Shown piece by piece: positions 21,511 to 58,606 of a DNA stretch of 64,000 nucleotides. Under the pieces are notes generated by a model that was given only the letters and a program-made list of their open reading frames with translations, had not been told where the DNA came from and searched no databases. Position numbers and translations under genes: made by a program. The stretch's first letter is position 1; every line of letters begins with the position of its first letter. Location: NCBI GenBank assembly GCA_963712745.1, contig CAVQJC010000001.1:160001-224000 (forward strand). The letters run 5' to 3'. The DNA is from an uncultured Chloroflexia bacterium (GTDB lineage Bacteria > Chloroflexota > Limnocylindria > Limnocylindrales > CSP1-4).

Positions 21511-21545
21511 GGGGTCGGGTCGCTAGGCTCTGCTACTCGAGCTGA

Positions 21546-24789: not shown

Positions 24790-24889
24790 CCATTTCCTTT
24801 CGAGGTGGACAGAAAAATCATACGGGACGCGTCAAGCGGGCTTGCTGCCGCGTGTTGACAGAACAACTGGAACAGGACCGGGCCCTCGA

Positions 24890-26558: not shown

Positions 26559-26614
26559 GAGGAACGCTCCTTGGGGTGCACGGGCGAGTCGGTGAGTGAC
26601 TCCGGATAGGGTGT

Positions 26615-40726: not shown

Positions 40727-41792
40727 TCAGCGGACCTCGCCGTCTTCGTCGATACCATTGATGCGGTCGCGATCGTCGTACGCCACGGCGATGAGGCGCG
40801 ACTCGAGCCTGCCCTCCGCGGGGAGGGTCACGGCGCTGCCGTTGTCGATCGCTTCTAGCAGCCCAGAGTCTGGCCAGCTGGTCCACGGCTCGAGCGCACA
40901 CGTGTACTCGCGGCCCCACCAGGGTGCATCCGGCTCTCCCCCCCACACCTGCCAGAACCAGAGGTACGGGAAGAGCGACGCATCCCACCGCAGTCCGAAG
41001 CCGACTCGCTTTCGGCCGCTGGTGATGCCGTACCAGCCCTCGTCGAAGCCACGAAGACAGACCCACTCGGAGCGACGGGCGTCCACGGACGGCACCACAC
41101 TGAGGTCGAGCGTGCCGCCATCGGCCAGCCGGGCATGGGGCCAGCGGAACTCATGGTCGAACTCAAGTGTGCTCGTCGGCAGCGGGCCTGATCGCCGCGT
41201 GCTCCCCTGGCATTCGGGCAAGTCGATGCGGCAGCTGTCGTCGAGGAAGGGTGCCCCGAACGCCGGGTGCTGCCCCCACATCAACTGGATGGGCACCATT
41301 GAGAGGTTGTTCACTGTCTCGTCGATGATCAGCGCAGACGATCCCGCACGAAGCGACAATCGCTTCTCCACCCGGAACGGCGTGAGCGGGGTCTCGACAG
41401 ACAGTGCGATCGTGACTAGCTCGGGCCTGTCGACCTCGACAACGGCATTCCAGCGGGAGGACCATAGCTCACCGTGGAATGGGGTACTCAGCACCGCGGT
41501 ACGTGACGCCCGGGCCGCCGTTGGGCAGGCATTCCTGCCAACCGCCCTCCCACTCGTCGAGGAAAGCGAAGACGCCCGAGGCTGACCGGCGACCGCCCGG
41601 CATCGGTGGCTGCAGTCCAGCAGAGCTTCGCCACAGGAAGTCCGTATCGGATGGCTTGTGCACGAAGGACGTGACATCGGAGCCTTTATCCGGCAGAAGC
41701 TCCACCCGGACCACCTCGTTCTCGAGTGAGAGGACGCGGCGGCCGGCTTCGACGTAGTCGCGAATCCGAGCGCCGAAGTGACGCGCAACCAT
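40727..41792 (-). pseudogene. Aldose-1-epimerase/DUF4432-family protein, frameshifted near 41485
   Basis: LENEVVRVELLPDKGSD, GGWQECLPNGG, then PFHGE, MWGQHPAFGAPFL, ALEPWTS in another frame. Confidence 0.83.
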
Positions 41793-42427
41793 CAGATGCT
41801 CATGCCCAAGGCACGTTGCACCACGTCGACGGCCCGAGCCGCGTCGGGCGCAAACCCGTCCGCACCGATCTGCCTCGCGTACTCCTCGGTGACCGGGGCG
41901 CCACCGACGACGATCTTGGTGTCGGCGATGTCGCTGGCACGCACCGCATCGACGACATCGGCCATGGCAGTCATGGTCGTCGTCAACAGGGCCGATAGAC
42001 CGATGACGGCGGCATTGTTCTCGCGGGCTGCGTCGACGAACCGTTGGGCCGGGACGTTCGTGCCCAGGTCGACGACTTCGAGGTTGGCGCCCTTCCACAT
42101 CATCGAGACAAGGCCCTTGCCGATGTCGTGCAGGTCGCCCTGGACCGTTCCGATTACGACTGTGTGCACCGGCTGGATGCCGGATTCGACGAGCGCCGGC
42201 TCGAGTTCGGCGAGCGCCTCTTTCATGGCTCGCGCCGCGATGAGCATGCCCGAGACGTAGACGTCTCCGGCCTGGAAGCGATCGCCGATTGCGGCCATGG
42301 ACGCGGTCATTGCGCCCAGGATCTCTGGGGCAGGGTAACCCTCCGCGAGTGCTTCACGGGTGAGCGACCGCGCGGCATTGGCGTCGCCGTCTTCGATGGC
42401 GGTGCCCAGTGAGGCGAGATCGGTCAT
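41792..42427 (-). CDS. Corrinoid (B12-binding) protein, MtaC/MttC-like
   Basis: B12 cap domain plus GTVQGDLHDIGK (DxHxxG), SALLTTTM, VGGAPVT. Confidence 0.95.
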   Translation of the reverse strand: MTDLASLGTAIEDGDANAARSLTREALAEGYPAPEILGAMTASMAAIGDRFQAGDVYVSGMLIAARAMKEALAELEPALVESGIQPVHTVVIGTVQGDLHDIGKGLVSMMWKGANLEVVDLGTNVPAQRFVDAARENNAAVIGLSALLTTTMTAMADVVDAVRASDIADTKIVVGGAPVTEEYARQIGADGFAPDAARAVDVVQRALGMSI

Positions 42428-43635
42428 GGCGTTGTGCTTCTCCCTTCGTATGCCTCGATCAGGTACTCGTATACCTCGCGCGGGCTGTCGGTGCGGCGAT
42501 CGGGGACCGGCTCATACCGTCCGTCCGCAAGCAGGCCGAGGATGGGCGAGTAGTCCTGCAGGAAAGCGACCCCTCGCAGCTCGATCGAGTCCGCCATGCG
42601 GTCGAAATACGATCGGTAGTCGAGCGGGGTGAAATCGCCGATGAAGAGCACCAGGCGGTCCTTGACACGCTCGTGCAACTCCACCAGTGCATCAAAGTCG
42701 TGCAGGGTGAACACGTTCAGGCCCTTCAGCCCGTCCATGGCTAGGAAGCTTTCGGCGTGATGGCTAGCGTCGCCGCAGTAGTGGACGATGCCGCCATCGA
42801 ATGCTTTGAGGATGCGGGAGTTGTAGGGCACCACGTACTCGCGGTACAGGTCGGCGTCGATGAGGACGGCGTCGTCGTCGGACAACCACACTCCGATGTT
42901 CTCGCCGGTGTACATCGACTGGTTGGCGATGCAATAGCCGGGAGGATCACCAATCACTTCTTTCTGGGCCTGGACCCAAGTGATAAGACCGTCGGTGATG
43001 ATGTCCATCAACTGGTGCATGGCCACCGGGTCATCCATCATGAGATAGATGAGTTTGTCGTAGCCCATCAACTGGTTGGCGGTCGTGAGCGGACCCTGGT
43101 GGTCGGTGAAGCCGACCGGCAGGTCGCTGTTCTCCTTCATGTAGCGCAGGTACTCGAGCACGGTGGGCATCAAGCCATCGCGCTCGGGATCTGGGACACG
43201 CAGTCGGCGGATGTCATCCGGACCCTGCACGGGGTAGTACGTGGGATCAGCAGCCGGATCCTGGCCGGGGTGGAACTCCACGCGACAACCGAAGGCGGAG
43301 GCCGCCACGACCGTGCCGAACCACGGCATCAGGTAGGGCACCCAGTCGTCGTCGACGTTGCGGAGATGGTTCAGGTACCAGCGCTCCTGGGCACTGACTG
43401 CCGCGGCGGGGTCGGTATAGAACGCATCCGGGATGGTCTCCGGCGCATGCCCGAATACCCAAGCCACGGCGTCGGTCACCGAAGCGACTGGCCGCTCGAG
43501 GGGCTCGAAGGCGAACACCGCGTCCATGCGTGGTTTGGTGCGAGCGAGCCGCTCCTCGTACCGGCGCCGCAGCTCGGCACGCTCTGCCGCTTCGAGCGGC
43601 ACCCCGTAGTCCTGCTGGTCGTTTGGATGGTTCAT
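42424..43635 (-). CDS. URO-D/MtaA-superfamily protein (putative methyltransferase)
   Basis: ASAFGC, DPERDG, TDHQGPLTTANQLMG, LSDDDA, YREYVVPY, HYCGD. Confidence 0.8.
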   Translation of the reverse strand: MNHPNDQQDYGVPLEAAERAELRRRYEERLARTKPRMDAVFAFEPLERPVASVTDAVAWVFGHAPETIPDAFYTDPAAAVSAQERWYLNHLRNVDDDWVPYLMPWFGTVVAASAFGCRVEFHPGQDPAADPTYYPVQGPDDIRRLRVPDPERDGLMPTVLEYLRYMKENSDLPVGFTDHQGPLTTANQLMGYDKLIYLMMDDPVAMHQLMDIITDGLITWVQAQKEVIGDPPGYCIANQSMYTGENIGVWLSDDDAVLIDADLYREYVVPYNSRILKAFDGGIVHYCGDASHHAESFLAMDGLKGLNVFTLHDFDALVELHERVKDRLVLFIGDFTPLDYRSYFDRMADSIELRGVAFLQDYSPILGLLADGRYEPVPDRRTDSPREVYEYLIEAYEGRSTTP

Positions 43636-43705
43636 TTGCGTTTGGTCCCTCCCTGTCGACGGCCTCGTTGGTTCCGTACCTTGCCGCCGACCTCCATGCC
43701 ACATG

Positions 43706-44590
43706 TCATCCGGCGAACTCGTTCGTGGCCAGTCCTGTGACGCCGGGCCGACAGACGAAAGTGGCGCCCGCGAGCGGCTGGTCCCGAAGGGCATCGGCAT
43801 CCAAGGCATACGCTGCGGACGTGATGTATAGATCCCCGAGGTCAGGACCACCGAAGCACACGCTCGTCGGCTGCTTGACTGGGAGGCCGATGCTGCCCCG
43901 CAGAACACCGTCGGGCCCGTAGCAGCGCACTTCGCCTCCGTAGAAGAGCGCCACCCAGACATTGCCCTCTGCATCGACTGTCAATCCATCTGGCATTCCC
44001 TCGTCCTGCGCGAACGTGACGAGCCGGGATGGTTCACCGAGTGCACCACTCGTGGCGTCAAACGGGAAGGCATCGATCGCGTAGTTGCCCGAGTCGATGA
44101 AGTACATGACGTCGCCGCTGGGGCTCCAGCCCAAGCCGTTGGCGATCGTGAGGTCGGGGAGGACGCGAGTCACCGAGTGATCCACGTCCACGCGATACAG
44201 GGAGGCGGCGCCCGCCGCGAAGTCGAACGACATCGTCCCCGCCCAGAGCCGGCCCTGCGGGTCGCACTTGGCATCATTCATCCGGTTCCCGGGGTTGTCA
44301 CCTTCGATCGGGGCGAAGATCCGAACGGCGCCATCGGAGTCTCCAAGGAAGCCGATCCCGTCCCGCATGGCGACCACGAGCCCACCCTGAGCTCGCGGGA
44401 TCACAGCTCCCACTTCCTGACCAACGCTGATCGTGTCGAGCGATCCACTCGCCGGATCGAGGCGGTAGATCAGCCCCGGCGACACATCCACGAACAGCAA
44501 CGTGCCGGTCCGCGCATCCCACGATGGACCTTCGCCCACGTCGGCACCGACCTCAGCGACCGGGGCCACCTTCACATCGTCGAACACCAT
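43706..44590 (-). CDS. SMP-30/gluconolactonase family sugar lactonase
   Basis: GEGPSW, RMNDAKCDPQGRLWAGTM, ANGLGWSP, PDGLTVD. Confidence 0.93.
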   Translation of the reverse strand: MVFDDVKVAPVAEVGADVGEGPSWDARTGTLLFVDVSPGLIYRLDPASGSLDTISVGQEVGAVIPRAQGGLVVAMRDGIGFLGDSDGAVRIFAPIEGDNPGNRMNDAKCDPQGRLWAGTMSFDFAAGAASLYRVDVDHSVTRVLPDLTIANGLGWSPSGDVMYFIDSGNYAIDAFPFDATSGALGEPSRLVTFAQDEGMPDGLTVDAEGNVWVALFYGGEVRCYGPDGVLRGSIGLPVKQPTSVCFGGPDLGDLYITSAAYALDADALRDQPLAGATFVCRPGVTGLATNEFAG

Positions 44591-44607
44591 CTCGCTTCTC
44601 TCCGGGA

Positions 44608-45357
44608 CTAGAAGTTGCCCAGCGAAGAGCCGCCGTCGACCAGGTACGTCGACCCGGTCACACTGGCTGCCGCCGGGGTACACAGGAAGAGCATCACTGC
44701 CGCCACGTCTTCGGGTTCCTGGAGCATCCCCAGGGGTACGGCCTTGGCGGCCCGGGCTGCGTACTCGGGATTGCGCTCAGCCTCGGCCCGTGCCAGTCCC
44801 GCATTCACGATGCCCGGCGCGACAAGGTTGCAGCGGATGCCGTCCTTCGCGTGTTCCAAGGCGATCGACCGCGCCAACATCTGAAGCGCGGCCTTCGAGC
44901 TCGAATAAGGAGCGATCTCCGGCCACGGTCGCTCGCCCACCCATGACCCGTTCAGCACGATGGAGCCCTTGGTCCTGTCGCGCAGGAACCGGCGGACAGC
45001 CGCCTGGGTGACGTGGAAGTTGCCGGTCAGGTTGACATCGATCTGACGCCGCCAAGAGTCGACCGTGACATCGACGAACGGGGCCGGCTCGACGATCCCG
45101 GCGTTGCCGATGACGAAGTCCAATCGGGCCGCTCCCTCGATCGCAGCATCGACTGCCGGGCGGTCGGTCACGTCAGCGGTCACGTAGCTGATCTGATTGG
45201 CTGGCAGGCCTTCGAGCAGTGCCCGCGCGTCATCGGCGCTCGACCGACCCACCGCGATGACATCTGCCCCCGCTTCGATGAATGCCCGGCAGACGGCGCG
45301 TCCGATGTCGCCGGCTGCACCAGTCACCAGCACGGTCTTGCCTCTCAAGTCACTCAC
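44608..45357 (-). CDS. SDR-family oxidoreductase
   Basis: TGAAGDIG, NAG, YSSSK, VTGSTYLVDGG. Confidence 0.93.
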   Translation of the reverse strand: MSDLRGKTVLVTGAAGDIGRAVCRAFIEAGADVIAVGRSSADDARALLEGLPANQISYVTADVTDRPAVDAAIEGAARLDFVIGNAGIVEPAPFVDVTVDSWRRQIDVNLTGNFHVTQAAVRRFLRDRTKGSIVLNGSWVGERPWPEIAPYSSSKAALQMLARSIALEHAKDGIRCNLVAPGIVNAGLARAEAERNPEYAARAAKAVPLGMLQEPEDVAAVMLFLCTPAAASVTGSTYLVDGGSSLGNF

Positions 45358-46531
45358 GAGACGCCTCCATAGTCGACTCCGGCCGGAGGTCCACGACCTC
45401 CATGATCGAGTTTGCGCTGAACAGGGCCGGGTCGATAGGCTCGTACGGGTGCTGTGAGATCGCGGCGTGGTCGAGTTCGACGCCCAGGCCCGGCGCCTCG
45501 GAGACATCGACATGGCCGTCGGTCACGCGCGGCGCTCCGACCACGACCTCGTGTCGCCAAGGCACATCCCAGGGCTCAAGCATCTCCTGGATCTGGAAGT
45601 TGGGACTCACGACGTCAACGGCGAGGGTGGCAGCGGTGGCGACGGCGCCGTTGGGATTGTGCGGCGCGATCTGGACGAACCAGGTCGCGGCCATGGCCGC
45701 GATGTCGCGAGCCTCGGCGATGCCGCCCACGTGCAGGATGTCGGGTTGGAGGATGTGGACCGCACCGAGCTCGAGCAGTCGTCGCACCTCAAGTCGGGAG
45801 TAGCAGCGCTCGCCAGCCGCGATGGGCACTCGGCTGTGCTCGGCCACGTGCCGCATCGCCTCAGGATTGCCCGGCGGGACCGGCTCCTCGAAGAAGAAGG
45901 GGTCGAAAGGCTCGAGGCGGCCGGCGATGGTCCGCGCCGCGTGAACGCTGAAGCGGCCGTGTCCCTCGATCAGCAGCGCCACTTTGGGTCCCAGCTCCCG
46001 TCGGAGCGCGGCTACGACCTCGACCGCTGCATCGCTCTCCGCGACCGTCGGCGCCAGGTCCGCTCGCCCGAAGGGGTCGAACTTCAGCGCCCGATAACCC
46101 AGTTCCACGACCTCGCCGGCTCGTTCGACCCACTCATCGACCGTCTGGACCCCGAAGTACCAGCCGTTGGCATAGACCGGCATCGGGCCGTGAACACGCC
46201 CTCCGAGCAAGCGCCATACCGGCTGGCCGAGCTGCTTGCCCATGATGTCCCACAGGGCGATCTCGACGGCAGCCAAGCCCGTGCCGGCAACATACCCACC
46301 GACCCAGAACGGGTCGCGGGTGAGCAGGCGACGGACTCCGGAGATGGAGGTGGCGTCTGCTCCGACAAGCACGCGCTTGAGGTCCTCAAGGTGGCCCTGG
46401 ATCGTGAGTTCACGGCCTTCGAGCGTGGCCTCACCAAGGCCGATGATGCCGTTGTCGGTCTCGACTTCGACGAAGACCCAGTTTCGCCACCCGGCGTGGC
46501 ATGGGTAGCAGCGGATGTCAGCGATTCTCAT
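45350..46531 (-). CDS. Mandelate racemase/enolase-superfamily sugar-acid dehydratase (DgoD-like)
   Basis: EIALWDIMGK, YANGW, ALKFDPF, IEGHGR, FFEEP, AAGER, APHNP. Confidence 0.92.
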   Translation of the reverse strand: MRIADIRCYPCHAGWRNWVFVEVETDNGIIGLGEATLEGRELTIQGHLEDLKRVLVGADATSISGVRRLLTRDPFWVGGYVAGTGLAAVEIALWDIMGKQLGQPVWRLLGGRVHGPMPVYANGWYFGVQTVDEWVERAGEVVELGYRALKFDPFGRADLAPTVAESDAAVEVVAALRRELGPKVALLIEGHGRFSVHAARTIAGRLEPFDPFFFEEPVPPGNPEAMRHVAEHSRVPIAAGERCYSRLEVRRLLELGAVHILQPDILHVGGIAEARDIAAMAATWFVQIAPHNPNGAVATAATLAVDVVSPNFQIQEMLEPWDVPWRHEVVVGAPRVTDGHVDVSEAPGLGVELDHAAISQHPYEPIDPALFSANSIMEVVDLRPESTMEASRE

Positions 46532-47606
46532 TCGCGCCTCCGGGTGGGGGTGCGTCATCAGCGGCGACACCGGCTACCGACTGGCGGAACATCCGCCTCT
46601 TTCGAACTTGGTCCAGCGCGGCAGCAAGGATGACGACAGCGCCGACGAAGAGGTTCTGGAGCGTGGGATCGACCCTTAGCAGGATGAGTCCTGTGGTCAG
46701 GACGCTCAGCAGGATGGCTCCCATGACCGTGCCCCGGATGGTCCCGATGGAGCCGCCGATGCTGGTGCCGCCGATGACGACGGCTGCGATCACCTGAAGC
46801 TCGAAGCCTGCCCCGAACGAGGGAGACCCCGAGCTGAGCCGGGAGGCCATCAGCACGCCGGCGAAGGCGGCGAGGCCGCCCCCGAGCATGTATGTGGCGG
46901 TCGAGACCCTGCGCACGTTGATTCCGAAACGGCGAGATCCCTCACGGTTGCCGCCGACAGCACGGATGGTCCAGCCGATCTTCGTCTTCTCGAGCAGGAT
47001 GTCCATCAGTATCGCCACGATCGCAGCGATGACAATCAGGAGCGGGATGCCAAGGATCTCGCCTTGGCCGATGTCCGTGAATTCATCGGGTAAGGGTCCG
47101 ATCGGATTGCCGCCCGAAAGGGCGACGACGAGCGAGCGCACGGCGAACAACGTCCCAAGCGTGACGATGATGGGCGAGATGTCCAAGTAGTTCACGAGGG
47201 CGCCGTTGAGGAGGCCCACGACGATCCCGACCGAAATCCCGAAGAGGAACACAGCTGGGACGATCCAGCCGGCGTCGGCCGCCCACGCCGCGCTGACCGC
47301 CCCCGCAGCGAAGACCGACCCGATCGAGAGGTCGAGACCGCCACCAACCATGACCACGGTTGAGCCTGTTCCTACGATGATGAGGAAGACAGCGTTGCGG
47401 AGGATGTTTGTCCAGGTCTGCTGGTCGAGAAAGCGCTCGTTCTGTGTCGCGCCGAGCACGACGAAGAGCACGATGACCACGATCAGGCCGCTGGCCGTGC
47501 TACCGAGGATGCGGCGCCAGGGGGACTGCGAGACGGAGGCGAGGTCGACCTCGGCAACGTCCGTGGCTCCGCCCACTGCGTCGTTGGTCACGGCACCACC
47601 GTTCAT
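46518..47606 (-). CDS. Monosaccharide ABC permease
   Basis: GGLDLSIGS, ISPIIVTLG, ELQVIAAVVIGGTS. Confidence 0.93.
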   Translation of the reverse strand: MNGGAVTNDAVGGATDVAEVDLASVSQSPWRRILGSTASGLIVVIVLFVVLGATQNERFLDQQTWTNILRNAVFLIIVGTGSTVVMVGGGLDLSIGSVFAAGAVSAAWAADAGWIVPAVFLFGISVGIVVGLLNGALVNYLDISPIIVTLGTLFAVRSLVVALSGGNPIGPLPDEFTDIGQGEILGIPLLIVIAAIVAILMDILLEKTKIGWTIRAVGGNREGSRRFGINVRRVSTATYMLGGGLAAFAGVLMASRLSSGSPSFGAGFELQVIAAVVIGGTSIGGSIGTIRGTVMGAILLSVLTTGLILLRVDPTLQNLFVGAVVILAAALDQVRKRRMFRQSVAGVAADDAPPPGGANENR

Positions 47607-48424
47607 TCCGGGCTTCCGTCGTGCTCAGCCCCACCTGCATGGTCACCAGGGATGGCGCCGGTGATGAGCCCCACAAGCTCTTCGGGCGTCGTGCGCGCAA
47701 CATCTCTGATGCCCTGTACCCGCCCCAGACGCATGACTTGGACGCGGTCGGCGACATCGAACACGAACGAAACGTCGTGGCTGATAAGGACCACAGCCTT
47801 GCCCTGCGACCGCAGCTGGCCCACGATCTCTCCCACCTGACGAGTCTCTCTTACACCCAGAGCTGCAGTCGGCTCGTCCATCATCACGATAGGGTTGTCA
47901 TCCCTGATGGCCCGCGCGATGGCGACGCCCTGGCGCTGGCCTCCGGAAAGCTCACCCACGGGCACGCGCACGGAAGGCAAGCGGACCTTCAGGCTTTGCA
48001 CGGTCCTGGCGGACTCCTCGATCATCCTCCGTCGGTCGGCGAAGAAGCGCCACCGACTCAGTTGGGCGCCGAGGAACATGTTCGCCGCCACGTCGAGCGT
48101 CTCGATGAGCGCCAGGTCCTGGAAGACCACGGAGACTCCCATCGCCCGAGCCAGGTGAGGGTCGCTGCCGGGCAAGACCTTGCCGCGGATCCGGACCTCA
48201 CCCCGGTCGAGCGCGTAGACGCCCGAGATGACCTTGACCATCGTCGACTTGCCGGCTCCGTTGTCCCCGACGACCGCCAGGACCTCACCGGGCCAGGCGC
48301 TCATCGAGACGTCACGAAGCGCGACGACGTGACCGAAGGACTTCCAGGCCCCCGCCAGCTCGAGTGCTGGCGGGGCGTCCTGGCGATCGGCCGGCTGAGT
48401 CGCCGGGTGTGACTGGACTGACAC
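47603..48424 (-). CDS. Monosaccharide ABC ATP-binding protein (single domain)
   Basis: GDNGAGKST, LSGGQRQ, MDEPTAALG. Confidence 0.94.
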   Translation of the reverse strand: MSVQSHPATQPADRQDAPPALELAGAWKSFGHVVALRDVSMSAWPGEVLAVVGDNGAGKSTMVKVISGVYALDRGEVRIRGKVLPGSDPHLARAMGVSVVFQDLALIETLDVAANMFLGAQLSRWRFFADRRRMIEESARTVQSLKVRLPSVRVPVGELSGGQRQGVAIARAIRDDNPIVMMDEPTAALGVRETRQVGEIVGQLRSQGKAVVLISHDVSFVFDVADRVQVMRLGRVQGIRDVARTTPEELVGLITGAIPGDHAGGAEHDGSPE

Positions 48425-48435
48425 GTCGGGAGCTC

Positions 48436-49419
48436 TTACTCCTCGCTGGCCAGGCTTGGGATGATGTCCGTTGGGCAGCCGGCATACGGCAGGCGGTCGG
48501 CGGTCACTGGATCGACGTCGATCGGCCAAAGCGTCTGCTCGGGGCCCTCACCGGCCTGAGCGGCCTTGATGAGCTCAGCGGCGAACGGCGAGGCCCAGAA
48601 GTAGCACTGGTTCAACGTCGTCGTGATCCACCCGTCCTCGATGGCGGCCAGTGTGGGGTCCAGAGCGTCGATCGAGAGCACGAACACGTCGCCGGGGGAC
48701 TTGCCTGCCTCGGCGAAGGCCTGAGGCACGACGCCGGGAGCAGCACCCTCGATGAGCCACAGCGCGTCCATCTCAGGGTAGGCAAGGCTGATGGCCCCGA
48801 GCTTCTCTGCCGCCTCACCGGGGTCGGAGTTATCGGTCTCCCAGGCGAGCTCGGTCATGTCGGGGTACTTCTCGGCCACCTGAGCCCGGAAAGCCTCGAC
48901 CTGGGCTACCTGGTTGGGAGTTTCCCGGGCGGTGCCCAGGATGACCACATTGGCTTCCGGGCCGACCTCTTCGGCGATGATGTCAGCGGAGAGCCGGCCG
49001 TATGCCACGTTGTCTGTGCCGACCGTGTAGTCCGCCTGCTCATCGATGCAGCCGATTGAGACGACGGTGATGCCGGCCTCCTGCGCCTGTCCGATGACAC
49101 CGCCGAAGGCGGCAGGATCAAGGCTGCAGGTGATGATGCCGTCGGCCTCGTCGGCGATGGCCTCCTCCATCATCGCGACCATGGCAGGGATGTCGATCGT
49201 GTTAGGCCCCACGATCGTCGGGTCGTACCCGATACGGTCAGCCGCCTCGGCGAAAGCGTCGTTCGACTGGCCCCAGGCCTGGAAGCTCGGTAGCGGGTTC
49301 ACATACCAGATGTTCAGCGCCTCCCCGTCATCCTGGGCCTGGACAGGCCCCACTGCGGCAGCCGCCAGGGTCACGCTTGCCAGCGCAGCGACCATCTTGG
49401 AGCGTGCACGTCGTTGCAT
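48436..49419 (-). CDS. Monosaccharide ABC substrate-binding protein
   Basis: Signal peptide ..VQAQD, ADGII, AGITVV, VGTDN. Confidence 0.92.
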   Translation of the reverse strand: MQRRARSKMVAALASVTLAAAAVGPVQAQDDGEALNIWYVNPLPSFQAWGQSNDAFAEAADRIGYDPTIVGPNTIDIPAMVAMMEEAIADEADGIITCSLDPAAFGGVIGQAQEAGITVVSIGCIDEQADYTVGTDNVAYGRLSADIIAEEVGPEANVVILGTARETPNQVAQVEAFRAQVAEKYPDMTELAWETDNSDPGEAAEKLGAISLAYPEMDALWLIEGAAPGVVPQAFAEAGKSPGDVFVLSIDALDPTLAAIEDGWITTTLNQCYFWASPFAAELIKAAQAGEGPEQTLWPIDVDPVTADRLPYAGCPTDIIPSLASEE

Positions 49420-49646
49420 TGGTTCCCAGACCTCCCCGTTCTGCTCCGATGCACCGAGTATTCTCGGCGTGACATATGATGTCGTATCTCATGATGCTCT
49501 ACCGTGTCAATCCCTCCTGATGGAGCGCCGCGGACTTGCCGCTCCCAGTGCGAACTCGAGTGCGTTGCCAGCACATGTATGATGTCCCGGTGAACGTCCG
49601 CGAGAGACCCGGCGGCCCTCGACCACGAACCACCGACCAGCGCCTG

Positions 49647-50360
49647 ATGGCAGATGCCGGCGGGTCGCGCACCGAGATACTCATAAGCCAGCTCATCGAC
49701 CGGATCATCAGCGGTGTCTACGCTCCCGGCGACACGATCCCCACCGAAGCGCAGCTGGGAGATGCGTTCGGGGTCAGCCGCACGGTCGTGCGAGAGGCAA
49801 TCAAGGTGCTGGCCGAGAAGCAGCTCGTGCGCGTCGACCGTGGGCGCGGGACCGTCGTGCGACCCCGCCGTGAATGGCGGATGCTGGATGCCGCCAACCT
49901 CTCGGCCCAGATCCGCCACGGCGACCGAGAGGTGGTCATCCGTGAGTTGATTTTGATGCGCAAGGGCATCGAGCCGGAGCTGGCAGCGATCGCCGCCGCA
50001 TCAGCGACACCGGAAGCGGTCGCATCGATCGGTGCGCGCGTCGATGCTCTCGCGCGTGCAGTCGACGACGAGCCGGCGTATCACATCGCTGATGGCCAGT
50101 TTCACGAGGCGATCGCCGAGACGGCTGGTGTCTCCATCGCCGTCGAGTTCCTTCAAGTGATGCGCGAGCCCCTCGACCTCGCTCGGCAGCTCACGGACCG
50201 AATCCCGGACGCCATCCTCAGCGCTCATCGGCATCACCTCGACGTGTTCACAGCCATCGCTCAGCGAGACCCAGATGGGGCTCGAAGCGCGATGCGACGC
50301 CATCTCGAGTGGGCGGAGGAGCGGCTCGGACTCGCATTCGACCCTAAGCGCGCGGGATGA
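49647..50360 (+). CDS. GntR/FadR-family regulator
   Basis: PGDTIPTEAQLGDAFGVSRTVVREAIK plus an FCD domain. ACAT(GT)ATGATGT motifs at about 49472 and 49573 are candidate operators. Confidence 0.93.
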   Translation: MADAGGSRTEILISQLIDRIISGVYAPGDTIPTEAQLGDAFGVSRTVVREAIKVLAEKQLVRVDRGRGTVVRPRREWRMLDAANLSAQIRHGDREVVIRELILMRKGIEPELAAIAAASATPEAVASIGARVDALARAVDDEPAYHIADGQFHEAIAETAGVSIAVEFLQVMREPLDLARQLTDRIPDAILSAHRHHLDVFTAIAQRDPDGARSAMRRHLEWAEERLGLAFDPKRAG

Positions 50361-51019
50361 GAGACGCCAAGGCTCTCGAGCTGGTCGAAACCCTCCGGCG
50401 TGTCGGATACAGCGCCGTCGTTTCTGACTGTTGCGATCAAGTCGGACTGCGCGACCAGACGATGTCGGCGGGAATCACCCCCGTGTCGGGTGGTCCGGGT
50501 GTCTTGGTCGGCTTTGCCCGGCCCGTGCTGAGCGTCGCCGTGGACGGGATTCCGGACGAGCCCTATCGCGCAGAGATCGACTTCATCGACTCGCTTGGCC
50601 CGGACGACGTGGTGGCCGCAACGGTCGAGGCTCCGGGGGCGTTCTGGGGAGAGCTCTTCTCAACCGCTGCCAAGGCTCGTGGCGCGGCCGGTGTCGTAGT
50701 CGATGGTCTGGTGCGAGATCAGACACGCATCAGGCAACTGGGGTTCCCCGTCTATGCACGTGGCGCCCGGCCGACCGATAGCCTCGGCCGCATCTCCATC
50801 GGCGCATGCGATACCGCCACCCTCATCGGCGGGATCAGTGTGGGCCCGGGGGACCTTGTGGTGGCCGACGTCGACGGCGTGACGGTGGTGCCCGTGGATG
50901 CGATCGAGGAGGTCGCAACACGCGCGATTGAGAAAGCGACCACTGAGAACCACGCTCGCGAGATGCTGGAGGGCGGTGCGTTGCTGCGCGATGCGTGGGA
51001 CCGGTTCCGGGTGTTGTGA
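50357..51019 (+). CDS. RraA-family protein (HMG/CHA aldolase-like)
   Basis: AVVSD, AFWGEL, VVDGLVRD, PGDLVVADVDGV. Confidence 0.9.
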   Translation: MRDAKALELVETLRRVGYSAVVSDCCDQVGLRDQTMSAGITPVSGGPGVLVGFARPVLSVAVDGIPDEPYRAEIDFIDSLGPDDVVAATVEAPGAFWGELFSTAAKARGAAGVVVDGLVRDQTRIRQLGFPVYARGARPTDSLGRISIGACDTATLIGGISVGPGDLVVADVDGVTVVPVDAIEEVATRAIEKATTENHAREMLEGGALLRDAWDRFRVL

Positions 51020-51897
51020 CGGGCCTCGCCGGGATCTACGCCCCGATCTGCACGCCGTTCCTTCCCGACGAGGAGCTCGATCTCAGGGGCCTGCGCGCGA
51101 ACCTCGAGCGCTACGCGGATACGGGGGTCCATGGTCTGCTCGCGCTGGGCAGCAACGGCGAGAACCGAAGCCTGGACGAGGCCGAGCGCCTGAAGGTGCT
51201 CGACGCGGTGGTGTGTCACAAGGGCCGCGACCAGGCCGTGATGGCCGGCGCTACCTACGACGCACAGCGTTCCGCGGAGCGGTTCCTGGCCGCTGCTGCC
51301 GACCTCGGCGCCGACTACGGACTGGTCCTCTCACCCGGCTACCACCGCAAGCAGATGACCGAGGAGGTCCTGTACCGCTTCTTCTCGACCCTCGCGGACG
51401 TGTCGGCGATTCCGCTGATCGTATACAACGCCCCCGGCTTCAACGGCATCACGCTCACGCCCGAGTTGGTCGGGCGGCTGTCGGAACACCCCAACATCGC
51501 TGGGCTCAAGGACAGCGCCGCGGCCGGGTTCGAGCACTTCCTGCCCCTCCAGCGTCCGGACTTCGCCGTGCTCGCGGGCTCCGCCGACTTCCTCTTCGCG
51601 GCCATGATCGGCGGCGCACCCGGCGGCACGGTCTCGCTGGCGAACTCGTTCCCAGCACTCGCGTTGGCGTTGTACGAGCTGGGACGGTCGCGCAACTCGG
51701 AGGACGGAACCGTCCTGCAGGAGCGGGTGAGCCGCATCAACCGCGCCATCTCCGGGGCCTTTGGCGTAGCCGGGGTCAAGGCGGCCATGGATCTGGCCGG
51801 ACTCGTGGGCGGCATCCCTCGACGACCACTGCTCCCCTTGACCGAGAACGAGCGCCAGCAGTTGCGTGCCACCCTGGAGGCGGAAGGGCTCATCTGA
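51016..51897 (+). CDS. Dihydrodipicolinate-synthase-family aldolase/dehydratase (HOGA/KDG-aldolase-like)
   Basis: LGSNGE, IVYNAPG, HPNIAGLKDS. Confidence 0.9.
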   Translation: MTGLAGIYAPICTPFLPDEELDLRGLRANLERYADTGVHGLLALGSNGENRSLDEAERLKVLDAVVCHKGRDQAVMAGATYDAQRSAERFLAAAADLGADYGLVLSPGYHRKQMTEEVLYRFFSTLADVSAIPLIVYNAPGFNGITLTPELVGRLSEHPNIAGLKDSAAAGFEHFLPLQRPDFAVLAGSADFLFAAMIGGAPGGTVSLANSFPALALALYELGRSRNSEDGTVLQERVSRINRAISGAFGVAGVKAAMDLAGLVGGIPRRPLLPLTENERQQLRATLEAEGLI

Positions 51898-53264
51898 TGG
51901 GCACCGACATCCTGGCACTCGACGTGGGAACGAGTGGGCTTAAGGCAGGGGTCTATACCTCGGATCTGCGGCTCGAGCGCGCGGTAACCCACGGGTACGA
52001 GCCGGACATCAGTGCCGGCGGCCAGGCGGACATATGGCCCGAACGGTGGTGGTCGGCCATCACCGCTGCCTGCGCCGAGCTTGGGTCCTCCCTTGCGGAC
52101 GTCAGCGTCATCAGCCTGGGCGTGACCACTCCTGGCCTGACGCCGATGGCAGCGGATGGCACCGCCCTGGGTCCGGCCATCCTGATGATGGACGGACGCT
52201 CGCGGAACCAGGCGGCGGCCATTCGCAAAGCCGTGGGCGAGGAACGCTTCCTGGCACAGGCCTGCAACTTGCCGGTGTCAGGCGGATCGTCGCTCGCGAG
52301 CATCCTCTGGATCCGCGACGAGCGTCCCGAGGTCTGGGCCAAGGCCGCGATCTTCGGACACACCAACACGTACGTGGTAAAGCGGCTGACGGGGCAGTGG
52401 GCCATCGACCCGTCCACGACATCGATCACCGGCCTGTACGCAACCGCGCGCAACGATCTGACCTGGATTGCCGAGGTGCTCGAGGCGGCCCATCTCGACC
52501 CTGCGAGACTGCCGCCTCTGATGCACTCGTTCGACCCGGTCGGGCGGATCTTACCAGCGGTCGCCGATGCGCTCGGATTGCCTCGCGAGGCGGTGGTGTT
52601 GTGCGGTGCGAATGACGCAGCCCTCGCAGCATGGTCAGGCGGGCTGTCCGAGCCCGGTGATGCCAACATCATCAGCGGTACCACCGACATCGCCAATGTC
52701 TGTACCGACGCGCCCGTGGCCTCGCCAGACTTCAACGTCCGCTGTCATGTCGTCCCCGGGCGCTGGCTCACGTTCTTCGTGCTCAACACCGGTGGCGTGG
52801 CCTATGACTGGTTCCGGCGCACCTTCTGCCGCGAGTTTGCGGTTGACGACTTCTACGCCGAGTACCTACCCGGCGTGTTAGAGGGCTTCCTCGGCGATCC
52901 CGCGGTCGATGGGCGAGAGGCCGAGCTGCCGACCTACCTGCCCTTCCTCGCCGGCAGCCGCTACTCGACCGAGCCACTTACGGCGTCATTCTCCGGTATC
53001 GGGCTCCAGACCACGCGAGAAGACCTGCTCCTGGCCATCGTGTGCGGCAACCTGCAGTACCTCGGCCAGCACCTCGAGCAGGTCGCCGCGCACGTACGCG
53101 TCAACCCGACGGTCGGCATCTCCGGTGGCGCAGCCCGGATCAGGGGCATGCTCGAAGCACGTCGGCGCTGGACGGGTGACTTCGAGTACGTCTTCCAGGA
53201 CCAATCGTCGCTGCTCGGGGCGGCCATGCTCGGGCAGGTGTATCAGCGTGGTGGCGCGGTATGA
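51897..53264 (+). CDS. FGGY-family sugar kinase (xylulokinase-like)
   Basis: LDVGTSGLK, DGRS, GANDA, YLPFLAGSR, SGG. Confidence 0.9.
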   Translation: MGTDILALDVGTSGLKAGVYTSDLRLERAVTHGYEPDISAGGQADIWPERWWSAITAACAELGSSLADVSVISLGVTTPGLTPMAADGTALGPAILMMDGRSRNQAAAIRKAVGEERFLAQACNLPVSGGSSLASILWIRDERPEVWAKAAIFGHTNTYVVKRLTGQWAIDPSTTSITGLYATARNDLTWIAEVLEAAHLDPARLPPLMHSFDPVGRILPAVADALGLPREAVVLCGANDAALAAWSGGLSEPGDANIISGTTDIANVCTDAPVASPDFNVRCHVVPGRWLTFFVLNTGGVAYDWFRRTFCREFAVDDFYAEYLPGVLEGFLGDPAVDGREAELPTYLPFLAGSRYSTEPLTASFSGIGLQTTREDLLLAIVCGNLQYLGQHLEQVAAHVRVNPTVGISGGAARIRGMLEARRRWTGDFEYVFQDQSSLLGAAMLGQVYQRGGAV

Positions 53265-53289
53265 GGCAGGCAAGGAGCGTGTGATAGCG

Positions 53290-54135
53290 ATGGCAGCGAC
53301 CAGAACCATGGTGGCCACGGCCATGCAGGGCGGCTACGCCGTGCCGGCGATCAACGTCGTCGACCAGCTGTCCATGGAAGCGGTGCTGGCGGCGGCCCAG
53401 GAGCTGCGCAGCCCGGTCATCGTGCAGACCTCGGTCAAGACCGTGCGCTCCATCGGCCTCGAGGTGCTGAAGGCGATGTGGGACACGACGGCCGCCTCGG
53501 TCGACGTGCCCGTGGCGCTGCACCTGGACCACTGCCCCGACCGAGGGGTCATCAGCGACTGCCTCGCCGCAGGCTGGGACTCGGTGCTGTTCGATGCACA
53601 CGAGCTCTCGGTCGAGGAGAACGAGCGCCAGTGCATCGAGGTCGTGGCCGAGGCGCGGCGCCACGGTGCCGACGTGGAGGGCGAGATCGAGGGCATCCGC
53701 GGCGTGGAGGACGGCATCGGTTCCGACGTTGCCAGCGTCATCCGGTCGCTCGAGGTCGCCGTCGGATTCATCGAGCGCACGGGCGTGGATATCTTCGCCC
53801 CGGCCATCGGCAACGCCCACGGCATGTACGCCGCACAGCCGACGCTCGACCACCAGCGCATCAGCGACCTCGTCGCGGCCACCGGCATCCCCATGGCGCT
53901 GCACGGCGGCACCGGCCTCAGCCCCGAGCAGTTCCGCGACCTGATCGCCCGCGGCTGCGCCAAGGTCAACGTCTCGACCGCCCTGAAGATGGCCTACATC
54001 GAGGCCAGCCGGGCCTACCTCGATGAGCACCCCGACGCGGCCGACCCGCCCAGGCTCTTCGCCCACGTGCGCGAGGCAGTGATGGAGATGACGCGGGCAC
54101 ACATCCGCATGTTCGGCTCGGAGGGGAGGGCATGA
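53290..54135 (+). CDS. Class II ketose-bisphosphate aldolase
   Basis: YAVPAIN, LHLDH, VEGEI, AIGNAHG, ALHGGTG, KVNVST. Confidence 0.93.
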   Translation: MAATRTMVATAMQGGYAVPAINVVDQLSMEAVLAAAQELRSPVIVQTSVKTVRSIGLEVLKAMWDTTAASVDVPVALHLDHCPDRGVISDCLAAGWDSVLFDAHELSVEENERQCIEVVAEARRHGADVEGEIEGIRGVEDGIGSDVASVIRSLEVAVGFIERTGVDIFAPAIGNAHGMYAAQPTLDHQRISDLVAATGIPMALHGGTGLSPEQFRDLIARGCAKVNVSTALKMAYIEASRAYLDEHPDAADPPRLFAHVREAVMEMTRAHIRMFGSEGRA

Positions 54136-55019
54136 GCGCGCTCCTCTTCGACTGCGACGGCGTCCTCGCCGACACCGAGCGCCACGGGCACCTGCCCGCC
54201 TTCAACCGGGCCTTCGCCGAGTTCGGGTTGCCCGTCCGCTGGTCGGAGGAGGAATACGGCAGGGCCCTGCATATCGGTGGCGGCAAGGAGCGCCTGGCCT
54301 CCCTGCTCACCCCCGAGCTCGTGGCCGAGGCTGGTCTGCCGACCGACCCGGAGGGCCAGGCTGTCGAGGTCGCGAGGTGGCACCGGCGCAAGACCGAGCT
54401 GTATGTCGAGCTGGTCCGCGCGGGCCGGCTGCCACCGCGCCCTGGCATCGCCCGCATCGTGGACGAAGCGCGCGTCGCAGGATGGCAGCTCGCGGTCTGC
54501 TCGACCTCGGCCGAGCCCTCGGTCCGCGCCATCCTGGAGACGGCGGTCGGGACCGACGCGGCGGCGGACTTCCTCGTGCTGGCCGGGGACATCGTGGCGG
54601 CCAAGAAGCCGGCGCCGGACATCTACGAGCTCGCGCTCGAGCGGCTCGGCATCGAGCCTGAGGAGGCGGTCGTCGTCGAGGACTCGCGCAACGGGCTGCT
54701 CGCAGCCCACGCCGCTGGGCTGGCCACCGTCGTCACTGTCAACGGCTACACCCGCGACCAGGACTTCGGCGAGGCCGCCCTCGTGGTCTCGTCACTGGGC
54801 GACCCTGGGGCTGAGCCTATCGAGGTGCTGGCCGATCGGGCAGGAGTGGGGGCAGGAGCCTACCTGACGCTGCCGGACCTCCAGGCATGCCGTCCGTGCC
54901 AGCCGAAGCAGCGGGCCCGAAACCTCATCCCAGAAGTACATCCGGTCCATGCAGCGAAGGGAGCATCACATGAACTCGATCGAACGTGTCGCAGCGGCGA
55001 TCGAACTGCGGAACCCTGA
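54132..55019 (+). CDS. HAD-IA phosphatase, CbbY-like
   Basis: FDCDGVLADTERHGH, GGGKER, KKPAPDIY, EDSRNG. Confidence 0.9.
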   Translation: MSALLFDCDGVLADTERHGHLPAFNRAFAEFGLPVRWSEEEYGRALHIGGGKERLASLLTPELVAEAGLPTDPEGQAVEVARWHRRKTELYVELVRAGRLPPRPGIARIVDEARVAGWQLAVCSTSAEPSVRAILETAVGTDAAADFLVLAGDIVAAKKPAPDIYELALERLGIEPEEAVVVEDSRNGLLAAHAAGLATVVTVNGYTRDQDFGEAALVVSSLGDPGAEPIEVLADRAGVGAGAYLTLPDLQACRPCQPKQRARNLIPEVHPVHAAKGASHELDRTCRSGDRTAEP

Positions 55020-56002
55020 CCGGGTTCCCGTAGATCTACACAACTTCCTGCCTGCTGCGCAGGCATTTGGACGCCCGTTCACGGAGACGTTCAGGGACGG
55101 GGAGTTGCTGGCCCAGGCCATGCTGGACGCGTGGCGCGAGTTCGGCCACGACATGATCCTCCTCGAGAACGGGACCGGCTGCAATGCCGAGGCCTGCGGG
55201 GCCGAGGTCAGCTATCGCGATGATGCCTCGCCCGTGGCCGAGAAGCCGCTCATCTCATCGCTCGACCAAGTCGCAGATCTGGTCGTGCCGGACCCTGAGA
55301 CGACCTTCCCACAGAATGAGATCCTCAAGGCCACGAGCGATCCTGTCCAAGGAAATCGGGGACCAAGCCTGGATCGTGGCGCGAGCGGACCAGGGACCGT
55401 TCGACCTTGCCGCCCAGCTCTTCGGGATGGAGGACCTGATGATGGCCATGGCCATGGGCGAGACCGAGGGCGTGAAGACGCTGCTCTCCTACTGCCGTGA
55501 GGTCACCACTCGCTACGCCTACGCATTGCTGGACGCAGGCGGTCGCTCGACGTCGATCGGAGAGCCGGTCTCCGGTCCCGGCCTCATCTCGCCGAAGGAC
55601 TACCAGCGCTTCGCGATGCCGCAGCAGCGCCAGCTCGTGGAGGACGTCACAGCCCACGGTGGCATCGTCGCTAACCACATCTGCGGCGACACGATCCCGA
55701 TCTTCGACGACTTCATGGCCACAGGTGCCCAGATCCTGGAGATCGACCACGTCACCGACAAGCAGGCGGCCAAGGACCTCGCTCGTGGCCGCACCTGTCT
55801 GCTCGGTACGCTCGACACCAACACCATCACCATGGGCACGCCCGCCGAGGTCGAGGACGAAGTGCGTGAAGCGATCGCCATCCTGGCACCCGATAGCGGC
55901 TTCATCATCGGTCCGGGCTGCGCGCTCGGGCCGGAGACCCCGGCGGACAACATCCATGCGCTGATTGAGGCTGCGCGCAAGTACGGGACCTATCCAGTCT
56001 GA
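54970..56002 (+). pseudogene. MtaA/CmuA-type (URO-D superfamily) methyltransferase, frameshifted near 55335
   Basis: MNSIERV..PDRVPV, AEACGA, then QGPFDLA, HICGD, GPGCAL (complete HxC..C zinc motif) in another frame. Confidence 0.85.
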
Positions 56003-56171
56003 CCCGGTCACGGCGAGAGGACTGCTCACTCGGCAAGTCAGTCGGCAGGGCCAGAGCGATGGAACTCACGCCTAGGATGCGAAGACTGCTCCCGTCAATC
56101 AACCTCGACCGGCATCAGCTCGGCGGACCCATCCAGGTTCGGACAATCTGCAAGGAGGAGGGACACGATCC

Positions 56172-56804
56172 ATGGCTGACCTGACCGCACTGACCGCGGC
56201 CGTCGAAGCGGGCAACCGGGCCGAGGCGGTGAGCCTCACCCAGGCCGCCATCGACGCGGGTACCCCACCCCAGGAGATCCTCGACGCCATGACGACGGCG
56301 ATGACCGAGGTCGGCCGCAAGTTCGCCTGCAACGAGGGCGTGTACGTGCCCGAGATGCTCATCAGCGCCCACGCCATGAAGGAAGCCAGTGCGCTGCTCG
56401 AGCCGCTGCTGGCCGCCTCGGGTATCAAGCCCGAGCACACCGCCGTCATCGGCACGGTGCAGGGCGACCTCCACGACATCGGCAAGAACCTCGTGGGCAT
56501 GATGCTGAAAGGCGCCAACTTCGAGATCGTGGACCTGGGCACCAACGTCAGCCCCGAGGCCTTCGCCGAGGCGGCGGTGGAGCACGGCGCCACCATCGTC
56601 GGCATCAGCGCCCTGCTGACGACCACGATGGTGGGCATGAAGGCCGCCGTGGAGGCCATCCGGGCGGCCGACCCCAAGGCCAAGATCCTCGTCGGCGGGG
56701 CGCCCGTGACCGACGAGTTCGCCGCCGAGATCGGCGCCGACGGCTTCGCCAAGGACGCCGCCACCGCGGCCAACGTGGCCCAGGCACTGCTGGCGGCGCG
56801 GTAG
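56172..56804 (+). CDS. Corrinoid (B12-binding) protein, second copy
   Basis: GTVQGDLHDIGKNLV, SALLTTTM, VGGAPVT. Strong RBS AAGGAGG. Confidence 0.95.
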   Translation: MADLTALTAAVEAGNRAEAVSLTQAAIDAGTPPQEILDAMTTAMTEVGRKFACNEGVYVPEMLISAHAMKEASALLEPLLAASGIKPEHTAVIGTVQGDLHDIGKNLVGMMLKGANFEIVDLGTNVSPEAFAEAAVEHGATIVGISALLTTTMVGMKAAVEAIRAADPKAKILVGGAPVTDEFAAEIGADGFAKDAATAANVAQALLAAR

Positions 56805-58347: not shown

Positions 58348-58422
58348 TGGCTCCGGCGGTAGGATTCGAACCTACGACCAATCGGTTAACAGCCGACCGC
58401 TCTACCACTGAGCTACGCCGGA
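58348..58422 (-). tRNA. tRNA-Asn (GTT) with encoded CCA
   Basis: TCCGGCGTAGCTCAGTGGTAGAGCGGTCGGCTGTTAACCGATTGGTCGTAGGTTCGAATCCTACCGCCGGAGCCA forms a full cloverleaf. Confidence 0.98.
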
Positions 58423-58606
58423 ACGGGTCCTGGTCGCACGTCGGATGGACCCGGACGTGCCGACACAAACACCACGCGACTGGTGGTGCCGGAAGAGGAT
58501 AGCACCTCCACGCTCGAGCCCCGCTCTGCCGAGGTCCCCGACCTTGCCGCGGGAGTACTTCCGGACCCCTTTCGTGGTGCGTCGCCGCGCCAGTAGCATC
58601 GCGAGC

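Follow-up and report, generated by a model that had tools for sequence, protein, structure and literature searches.

A putative corrinoid-dependent methyl-transfer system associated with sugar uptake and oxidation genes in an uncultured Chloroflexia bacterium

A 64,000-nucleotide stretch of DNA from an uncultured Chloroflexia bacterium (G000:C1:160001-224000; hereafter the window) carries two divergent gene arms in which methyltransferase-like and corrinoid proteins stand among genes for sugar import and oxidation (Table 1). The source genome is 4.2 Mb in size, is assembled into 20 contigs, is 84.6% complete and has a G+C content of ~67%. Gene identities were taken from Pfam and NCBIfam, and all candidate frames were submitted to Pfam, since GC3-based callers missed genes such as the FGGY kinase, the lactonase and the aldolase. 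All 17 genes that a preliminary description had assigned to the two arms were found in this way. NCBIfam cut-offs are reached almost nowhere in the cluster, the exceptions being the cbbA aldolase subfamily and a generic HAD model. The minus-strand (left) arm contains a divergent protein of the uroporphyrinogen decarboxylase (URO-D) superfamily, MT_L, and the corrinoid protein CP1; the plus-strand (right) arm contains an MtaA-like URO-D protein, MT_R, and the corrinoid protein CP2. The cluster was compared with those of two congeners (G010 and G005) and with a set of fetched loci (L-numbers).

MT_L shows low similarity to described proteins. Its match to PF01208 is weak and covers profile positions 72-196 only, sequence searches give only weak partial matches, and there is no hemE match at 1e-5 in NCBIfam. 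An AF2 model (pLDDT 85.2, pTM 0.88) has URO-D and MtaA as its top folds (TM 0.6-0.7), and relatives in the ESM Atlas fall exclusively into generic URO-D clusters. The family comprises 492 relatives at E<=1e-10, none with a functional name, and is ~55% identical across Anaerolineae, Caldilineales, Acidobacteriota and others. An H-x-C-G motif located in a beta-strand and followed by His-His is invariant in 18 aligned sequences, a likeness to MtaA at the level of the motif only; among 40 family members H-Y-C-G is kept and there is no third Cys. In MT_R, by comparison, the reported HICG and C-terminal GC are both present, the latter as PGC. Over residues 6-337, the unbroken orthologue from G010 can be aligned with MtaA (4ay7) at 2e-23, HICG and PGC being in register by the zinc-ligand numbering of MtaA. 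Across 21 MT_R-type sequences the H-I-C-G...G-C pattern, which corresponds to a His-Cys-Cys zinc triad, is at least 90% conserved. A third URO-D paralog, encoded at related loci, keeps the His only (25 sequences). Within the superfamily, His-Cys-Cys is described as marking S/Se-methyltransferases, and loss of Cys as marking O-methyltransferases (Kountz & Balskus, PMC10418091); the MT_L family has the O-type and the MT_R family the S-type pattern. MT_R remains below the cut-offs of TIGR01463 (MtaA/CmuA; 135.4 vs 235.4 bits), of the MtaA equivalog (130.9 vs 400) and of the hemE equivalog (65.7 vs 303).

Both corrinoid proteins read GDLHDIGK, in agreement with the DxHxxG motif noted before, and the motif is conserved in 16 family members. 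CP1 lies under every NCBIfam equivalog cut-off and is 85-93% identical in the congeners. CP2 is ~57% identical to CP1 (57-59% against the CP1 locus).

In the window MT_R is split over two frames by one surplus base at 55338. The G010 orthologue is a single frame of 343 aa, and the base is absent from contigs of X1, X2 and X3, which are metagenomic DNA runs from three studies (estuary, sediment) with contigs at least 99% identical to parts of the stretch, and from contigs of X20, an RNA run. For each DNA run, one contig is otherwise the same as the window over 151-213 bases. Since these independent contigs lack the base, MT_R is intact in nature and the break at 55338 is an assembly artefact. 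Similarly, the DUF4432 gene has a surplus base near 41486 relative to G010 and G005, where its frame is continuous, as judged by sequence comparison with the congeners only; the acetyl-CoA synthase gene on contig C11 consists of two overlapping frames, probably owing to another assembly indel, and a CP2-like gene on contig C20 is broken in the same manner. These four splits imply that the assembly is prone to single-base insertions and deletions. A programmed frameshift or a pseudogene in MT_R is ruled out by the independent contigs and by the three other genes likewise split. X20 contigs overlie parts of the stretch, as contigs that cannot show transcription, and one X20 piece contains 27 differences and is therefore from a relative.

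On the left arm, MT_L, CP1 and the DUF4432 gene continue on one strand with genes for a lactonase, a short-chain dehydrogenase (SDR), an acid-sugar dehydratase and an ABC importer, the last in the order binding protein, ATPase, permease. The closest solved relatives of the SDR are Bacillus glucose 1-dehydrogenases (1e-41). The dehydratase scores 297.9 bits on the NF010624 galactonate dehydratase model, 13 bits short of the cut-off of 311, and its top PDB match is 3rr1, a 'putative D-galactonate dehydratase' (4e-62). The lactonase is 89-90% identical in the congeners. The gene previously labelled an aldose epimerase encodes instead a DUF4432 protein, for which a PDB sequence search gave no match. 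PDB searches with the binding protein return only weak, non-specific sugar-binding relatives (best 7.6e-15), from which the ligand cannot be predicted. The window's ATPase has a single nucleotide-binding domain; related loci L043, L063, L069 and L071 encode a double-domain ATPase of ~508 aa. Stop and start codons overlap at MT_L/CP1, CP1/DUF4432 and permease/ATPase on the left arm and at GntR/RraA and aldolase/HAD on the right, so that each arm reads as an operon.

The right arm opens with a regulator gene and continues with sugar genes. The best PDB match of the DHDPS-family protein is a 4-hydroxy-2-oxoglutarate aldolase (1e-47), followed at 5.5e-24 by YagE, a 2-keto-3-deoxy-galactonate aldolase. 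The FGGY kinase scores 165 bits on the xylulokinase model (cut-off 380), and the class II aldolase exceeds the cut-off of the TIGR00167 cbbA subfamily (222.4 vs 215.6 bits). Taken over both arms, all four enzyme families of an oxidative (De Ley-Doudoroff-like) aldose pathway, aldose 1-dehydrogenase, lactonase, acid-sugar dehydratase and 2-keto-3-deoxy-acid aldolase, are present, with a dehydratase below its cut-off and an aldolase that is not conserved with the cluster. A paralogous HAD (71%) and class II aldolase (81%) occur at G000:C11:179790-186979, a few kb from another URO-D paralog, and the pair thus recurs beside URO-D genes within the genome.

Table 1. Features of the two arms and of a further URO-D gene group, with window positions
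Feature	Positions	Strand	Remarks
ABC ATPase, double-domain	19981-21510	-	second URO-D module
Peripla_BP_4 binding protein	21549-22529	-	second URO-D module
Permease	22592-23584	-	second URO-D module
ROK protein	23577-24725	-	second URO-D module
URO-D paralog, 414 aa	25377-26618	-	second URO-D module; no corrinoid gene adjoining
DUF4432 protein	40727..41792	-	Pfam PF14486; start codon overlaps CP1 stop codon
CP1, corrinoid protein, 211 aa	41792..42427	-	PF02607 + PF02310 (B12-binding_2 + B12-binding)
MT_L, divergent URO-D-superfamily protein, ~403 aa	42424..43635	-	proposed methyl-ether:corrinoid methyltransferase
SMP-30/gluconolactonase-family sugar lactonase	43706..44683	-	PF08450, 8.5e-82; start uncertain
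SDR, probable aldose 1-dehydrogenase	44608..45513	-	Pfam adh_short; true start probably near 45360
Enolase-superfamily acid-sugar dehydratase, galactonate-dehydratase-like	45350..46570	-	MR_MLE_N/C
CUT2-type sugar ABC permease	46518..47606	-	PF02653; top NCBIfam models are monosaccharide permeases, all sub-cut-off
ABC ATPase, single nucleotide-binding domain	47603..48529	-	PF00005, one stretch
Periplasmic sugar-binding protein (Peripla_BP_4)	48436..49419	-	PF13407
Divergent intergenic region	49420..49535	.	holds one copy of the 9-mer TATGATGTC
GntR/FCD-family regulator	49536..50360	+	PF00392 + PF07729
RraA-like protein (class II pyruvate-aldolase/decarboxylase family)	50357..51019	+	PF03737
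DHDPS/NAL-family pyruvate aldolase-like protein	50995..51897	+	PF00701
FGGY-family sugar kinase	51897..53264	+	PF00370 + PF02782
Class II ketose-bisphosphate aldolase	53290..54135	+	PF01116, 5.9e-79
HAD-IA hydrolase, phosphatase-like	54132..55019	+	PF00702 and PF13419
MT_R, MtaA-like URO-D methyltransferase	54970..56002	+	proposed methyl-corrinoid:thiol methyltransferase; halves match PF01208 positions 3-116 and 128-346
CP2, corrinoid protein, 210 aa	56172..56804	+	PF02607 + PF02310

Both congeners have every left-arm gene in syntenic order (MT_L 89% identical in G010 and 94% in G005), and L037 shares this synteny, with an MT_L 89% identical to that of the window. To cover more distant relatives, 44 loci around MT_L relatives were fetched from several phyla; 42 hold at least half of MT_L, and 21 have at least 5 kb on both sides (full-flank loci). 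Neighbours were called by tblastn with the window's own proteins and a home-made ORF picker, and an MT_R-type gene was defined as at least 50% identical. Such a gene lies within 2.5 kb of the MT_L-type gene at 17/42 loci (12/21 with full flanks) and directly upstream on the same strand at 16/42 (11/21). Within 10 kb of MT_L-type genes, a corrinoid protein is encoded at 14 of the 42 loci (11 of the 21), a CUT2 permease at 15 (11) and the third URO-D paralog at 15 (10). In the typical locus L043, an ABC ATPase, a permease and a double Peripla_BP_4 binding protein are followed in order by MT_R, MT_L, a CobW-type protein, the third URO-D paralog and a corrinoid protein. The CobW-type gene, found within 10 kb at 8/42 loci (5/21), encodes a CobW/ZigA-like GTPase (putative metallochaperone) and lies between MT_L and the third paralog in 8/42 loci (L038-L066 range); in L043 itself it is read in two frames. 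No copy occurs near the window's cluster.

The earlier expectation that the co-localisation is conserved is thus borne out for the left arm in both congeners and for the module at related loci, and fails for the sugar genes of the right arm. Right-arm RraA, DHDPS, FGGY, aldolase and HAD genes are limited to the genus, rearranged in G010, where MT_R, RraA, aldolase and HAD form an inverted block, and missing in G005. Among the 44 loci, RraA and HAD occur only in the genus's own locus (RraA: L037), and DHDPS and class II aldolase in none (0/44); DHDPS does not stand beside the module in G010 or G005 either. Because they are not conserved with the module, the right-arm sugar genes are treated here as local additions. 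Each arm does contain its own URO-D and corrinoid pair, as originally proposed, but the pairs are not parallel modules, since MT_L and MT_R types adjoin in 17/42 loci. We read MT_L and MT_R as the putative donor-side and acceptor-side halves of one conserved module that has been split in this genus, where MT_L and CP1 are in the sugar operon, and MT_R and CP2 at the end of the other arm. Some Acidobacteriota have MT_L and no nearby corrinoid gene. That their genomes should encode a corrinoid protein elsewhere is a falsifiable prediction, and it held: 5/5 encode a B12-binding_2 protein elsewhere, in frames of 214-253 aa.

The association with carbohydrate genes extends well beyond the genus, as 17 of 20 Pfam-annotated related loci have such genes near the MT_L-type gene. 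They include CUT2 importers (L039, L043, L047, L055, L063, L069), a CUT1 importer with a ROK protein and a fucose-isomerase-like gene (L059), and an MFS sugar porter with GH2 (L068), and CUT2, CUT1, MFS and SSF transporters are all represented among the annotated loci. Glycoside hydrolases comprise GH3 directly upstream of the MT_L-type gene (L061, L064, L065), GH42 (L062), GH78 (L057) and a GH127-like gene together with DUF4432 (L076). DUF4432 also occurs with an SDR (L077), and in both L076 and L077 it is directly downstream of the MT_L-type gene. Enolase dehydratases with an SDR are found in L072, and a GFO oxidoreductase with a 3-keto-disaccharide hydrolase in L052. The closest parallel to the window is L063, which combines a GntR/FCD regulator, a CUT2 importer, an enolase dehydratase and an SDR with MT_R, MT_L and a corrinoid protein. 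The window itself contains a second sugar-linked URO-D module beside a CUT2 importer (19981-26618, minus strand; Table 1).

Neither a pterin-binding second methyltransferase nor a reductive activator had been seen in the window, and the genome search agrees, with matches only on contigs C6, C11 and C20. The same search, for methyltransferases of this kind and for activators, located four pterin-binding genes and two RACo-type activators, the latter on C11. The genome further encodes ~20 URO-D proteins (22 PF01208 matches), seven corrinoid proteins of stand-alone size and a heme-copper oxidase. A Wood-Ljungdahl cluster at C11:366000-385999 (L035) contains acetyl-CoA synthase, both CoFeSP subunits, RACo, a CooC-like gene, a pterin-binding methyltransferase, two MTHFR genes, formate-tetrahydrofolate ligase (FTHFS) and FolD. 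Immediately after it come another pterin-binding gene, a pair of URO-D genes, and genes for a corrinoid protein and a GFO oxidoreductase. With activators, pterin-binding enzymes and Wood-Ljungdahl genes all present, methyl groups can enter C1 metabolism. In a separate region, C20:535000-554999 (L036), one of four URO-D genes is a paralog of MT_L with 38% identity, and a corrinoid gene split over two frames has 93% identity to CP2. The region also encodes a NiFe hydrogenase with NuoE/F-like subunits, a CUT2 permease, and ROK and phosphotriesterase-family proteins.

The two arms may encode one corrinoid-dependent methyl-transfer system tied to sugar uptake and oxidation, a proposal to which we give an even chance. 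Pectins, xylans, algal galactans and bacterial polysaccharides contain O-methyl sugars, whose methyl ether blocks normal sugar catabolism. From the observed gene content, motifs, folds, synteny and neighbourhoods we infer the substrate, the individual catalytic steps and the way in which the methyl group moves, as follows. The CUT2 importer would take in an O-methylated aldose, possibly of galactose configuration, which is a hint only, as it derives from the dehydratase and from GH42 in L062. MT_L, with its predicted His/Cys metal site and no third Cys, would move the ether methyl to the Co(I) of CP1 or CP2, giving methyl-Co(III) and free sugar. MT_R, with its predicted His-Cys-Cys zinc site, would pass the methyl to a thiol, candidates being homocysteine or another small thiol; alternatively, the C11 pterin-binding methyltransferases could transfer it to tetrahydrofolate and so to the Wood-Ljungdahl pathway. 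The freed aldose would be handled by the DUF4432 protein in a mutarotase-like role, oxidised at C1 by the SDR and converted by lactonase and dehydratase to a 2-keto-3-deoxy acid, which a pyruvate aldolase could split. Oxidised corrinoid would be reactivated by one of the two RACo-type activators. In a broader form, MT_L would found a widespread family of corrinoid methyltransferases that cleave aliphatic carbohydrate methyl ethers without oxygen and are paired with an MtaA-like thiol methyltransferase; the chances of this we put at a little under even.

Several points weigh against these proposals. To our knowledge, no corrinoid methyltransferase acts on an aliphatic, sugar-type methyl ether. 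An alkoxide is a poor leaving group, and aliphatic methyl ethers are harder to cleave than aryl ethers. Sequence matches of the binding protein and the dehydratase identify no substrate, and a look-up of the clusters of ten MT_L relatives gave no isolate and no informative name. MT_L and MT_R are 11 kb apart on divergent arms in the window, and in G005 only CP2 and a fragment of MT_R are left beside the cluster. Seven of the 21 full-flank loci have no MT_R, corrinoid protein or third URO-D paralog nearby. Activators are found at 0/44 related loci and pterin-binding methyltransferases at 2/44. In the phylum sample, members of the MT_L family are rare: 4 of 301 genomes are positive at E<=1e-80, G000 included. 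Three of the 20 annotated loci (L056, L058 and L067) contain no carbohydrate genes. Finally, with ~20 URO-D paralogs and many transporters in the genome, some co-localisation of URO-D and sugar-transporter genes is expected by chance.

Chance is the basis of one other explanation, in which the URO-D and corrinoid genes form part of a general repertoire for methylotrophy or methoxydotrophy (on methanol or methoxy-aromatics) that feeds the Wood-Ljungdahl pathway, and acquired sugar neighbours by accident or for regulatory reasons. The number of URO-D paralogs, the O-demethylase-like gene set adjoining the Wood-Ljungdahl cluster (pterin-binding gene, two URO-D genes, corrinoid protein) and the rearrangement or loss of the right arm in the congeners are all consistent with it. 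In addition, the 10-kb surroundings of ABC ATPase and permease matches (tblastn) make up 31.5% of the genome. Thirteen of 20 URO-D paralogs are within 10 kb of a transporter match, against that 31.5% (binomial p ~0.002), an enrichment to which we attach little weight, since the ATPase query was generic and the paralogs are not independent. However, the sugar link recurs in other phyla, with a CUT2 permease at 15/42 loci and carbohydrate genes at 17/20, and MT_L and CP1 overlap their neighbours inside a sugar operon and keep their place in it in both congeners, which makes this explanation unlikely, if the least so of those considered. Under the same mechanism, the substrate could instead be a methyl glycoside or a pinitol-like methylated cyclitol or polyol. 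Inositol routes typically involve GFO/IDH/MocA oxidoreductases and xylose-isomerase-like TIM barrels, and genes for such proteins stand next to MT_L-type or sister URO-D genes in L052, L059, L062, L072, L076 and on C11; CUT2 importers also carry inositols and polyols, and the right-arm class II aldolase is from a family that presumably includes IolJ. On the other hand, the SDR of the MT_L operon is aldose-dehydrogenase-like, and together with the lactonase and the acid-sugar dehydratase encoded there it implies oxidation of an aldose at C1. A substrate of one of these other kinds is given a slightly smaller chance than accidental association.

A sulfur- or selenium-based function, in which MT_R would be the donor-side enzyme and would demethylate a methylthio compound (e.g., a methylthio-sugar) in the way of type 1 mlp clusters, is improbable. 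The His-Cys-Cys triad of MT_R is of the type assigned to S/Se-methyltransferases (PMC10418091), related loci with three URO-D paralogs and a corrinoid protein resemble mlp clusters in composition, and CobW-type GTPases accompany 8/42 loci. Nevertheless, genes of sulfur or selenium metabolism are absent from the window and from all 20 annotated loci, the clusters contain no RACE gene, neither MT_L nor the third paralog has the Cys ligands, and transfer of a thioether methyl to an oxygen acceptor would be thermodynamically odd. Least probable of all, by our estimate, is that MT_L is a cofactor-independent URO-D-like enzyme, such as a decarboxylase, that acts on a sugar acid, the corrinoid proteins serving MT_R or other paralogs. 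In favour of this, MT_L covers only a portion of the URO-D profile, the best structural matches of its model are true uroporphyrinogen decarboxylases, and in several Acidobacteriota it stands beside glycoside hydrolase genes at loci that lack a corrinoid gene nearby. All five Acidobacteriota genomes examined, though, encode corrinoid proteins of stand-alone size elsewhere; H-x-C-G followed by His-His is invariant in the 18 aligned MT_L sequences and resembles MtaA at motif level; and MT_L overlaps CP1 in the window, with MT_R adjoining in 17/42 loci and a corrinoid protein within 10 kb in 14/42.

Methyl transfer from a sugar ether through CP1 or CP2 to MT_R would have partial precedents in several known systems. 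MT_R is like the methanogen methylcobamide:coenzyme M methyltransferases MtaA, MtbA and MtsA (4ay7) in its fold, its full-length alignment and its H-x-C...C triad, and it adjoins a DxHxxG corrinoid protein. Unlike them, it is bacterial, falls below the cut-off of TIGR01463 and stands in a sugar-import context, and its conserved partner is MT_L rather than a donor enzyme of the MtaB or MttB type. The O-demethylases of acetogens and Desulfitobacterium (Odm, Vdm, Mtv) act on aryl methyl ethers, with a pterin-binding MT II and an activator that is usually clustered. The window system is similar to them, as likened by description only, in its small corrinoid carrier and its proposed Co(I) logic, and tetrahydrofolate and Wood-Ljungdahl genes that could receive the methyl are present in the source genome as well. 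It differs in that the second enzyme is MtaA-like with His-Cys-Cys and that the cluster has no activator or pterin enzyme. The donor-side MT I of Odm, Vdm and Mtv is from the URO-D superfamily (PMC10418091).

Type 1 mlp clusters, which are widespread and patchy, similarly combine several URO-D paralogs with one corrinoid protein and have no tetrahydrofolate methyltransferase in the cluster (PMC10418091). Their paralogs are almost all His-Cys-Cys, a Ram/RACE activator and sulfur/selenium neighbours are present, and the hosts are obligate anaerobes, mostly Firmicutes (PMC10418091). In contrast, the window system has no Ram/RACE or sulfur/selenium genes, MT_L and the third paralog lack the full Cys set, the neighbours are sugar genes, and the genome encodes a heme-copper oxidase. 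Sugars, ABC transporters and Chloroflexi are not mentioned in the main text of the mlp preprint (PMC10418091). Cytochrome P450 carbohydrate demethylases, described for 6-O-methyl-D-galactose (PMC6292453), have the role proposed here, the removal of a methyl ether that blocks sugar catabolism, but are oxygen-dependent monooxygenases of unrelated fold and cofactor. This oxygen-dependent route was the only enzymatic sugar demethylation to turn up in the full-text literature searched, and no description of a corrinoid-dependent one was found there, subscription journals being outside the coverage. The system is probably a multi-component corrinoid methyltransferase with a new substrate class and an unusual MtaA-like partner on the acceptor side.

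If this assignment is right, the locus would provide the first B12-dependent O-demethylation of a sugar, and aliphatic sugar ethers would join aryl ethers, methanol, amines and thioethers as substrates of corrinoid methyltransferases. Methyl groups from the polysaccharides of plants, algae or microbes would flow into methionine or the Wood-Ljungdahl pathway in Chloroflexota, Acidobacteriota and other phyla of soils and sediments, and polysaccharide breakdown would thereby be linked to C1 metabolism and to the cobamide demand of the community. It would also explain in part why bacteria of soils and sediments have so many unannotated URO-D paralogs. With so few genes involved, the system lends itself to direct in vitro testing.

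As to regulation, an Rfam scan of the whole window for a cobalamin riboswitch matched solely a tRNA (58351-58422, minus strand), and no inverted repeat that could serve as an operator was found in the divergent intergenic region. The 9-mer TATGATGTC has just two copies in the 64 kb, one at 49475-49483 in that region and one at 49578-49586, inside the 5' part of the longest frame for the regulator. Two matches compare with 0.10 expected in the window, and 0/100 shuffles reached two; the 9-mer may be a half-site for binding of the regulator. Downstream of the right arm, the frame at 58445-59707 has a weak Pfam match to GIDE (E3 ligase-like; 26.5 bits).

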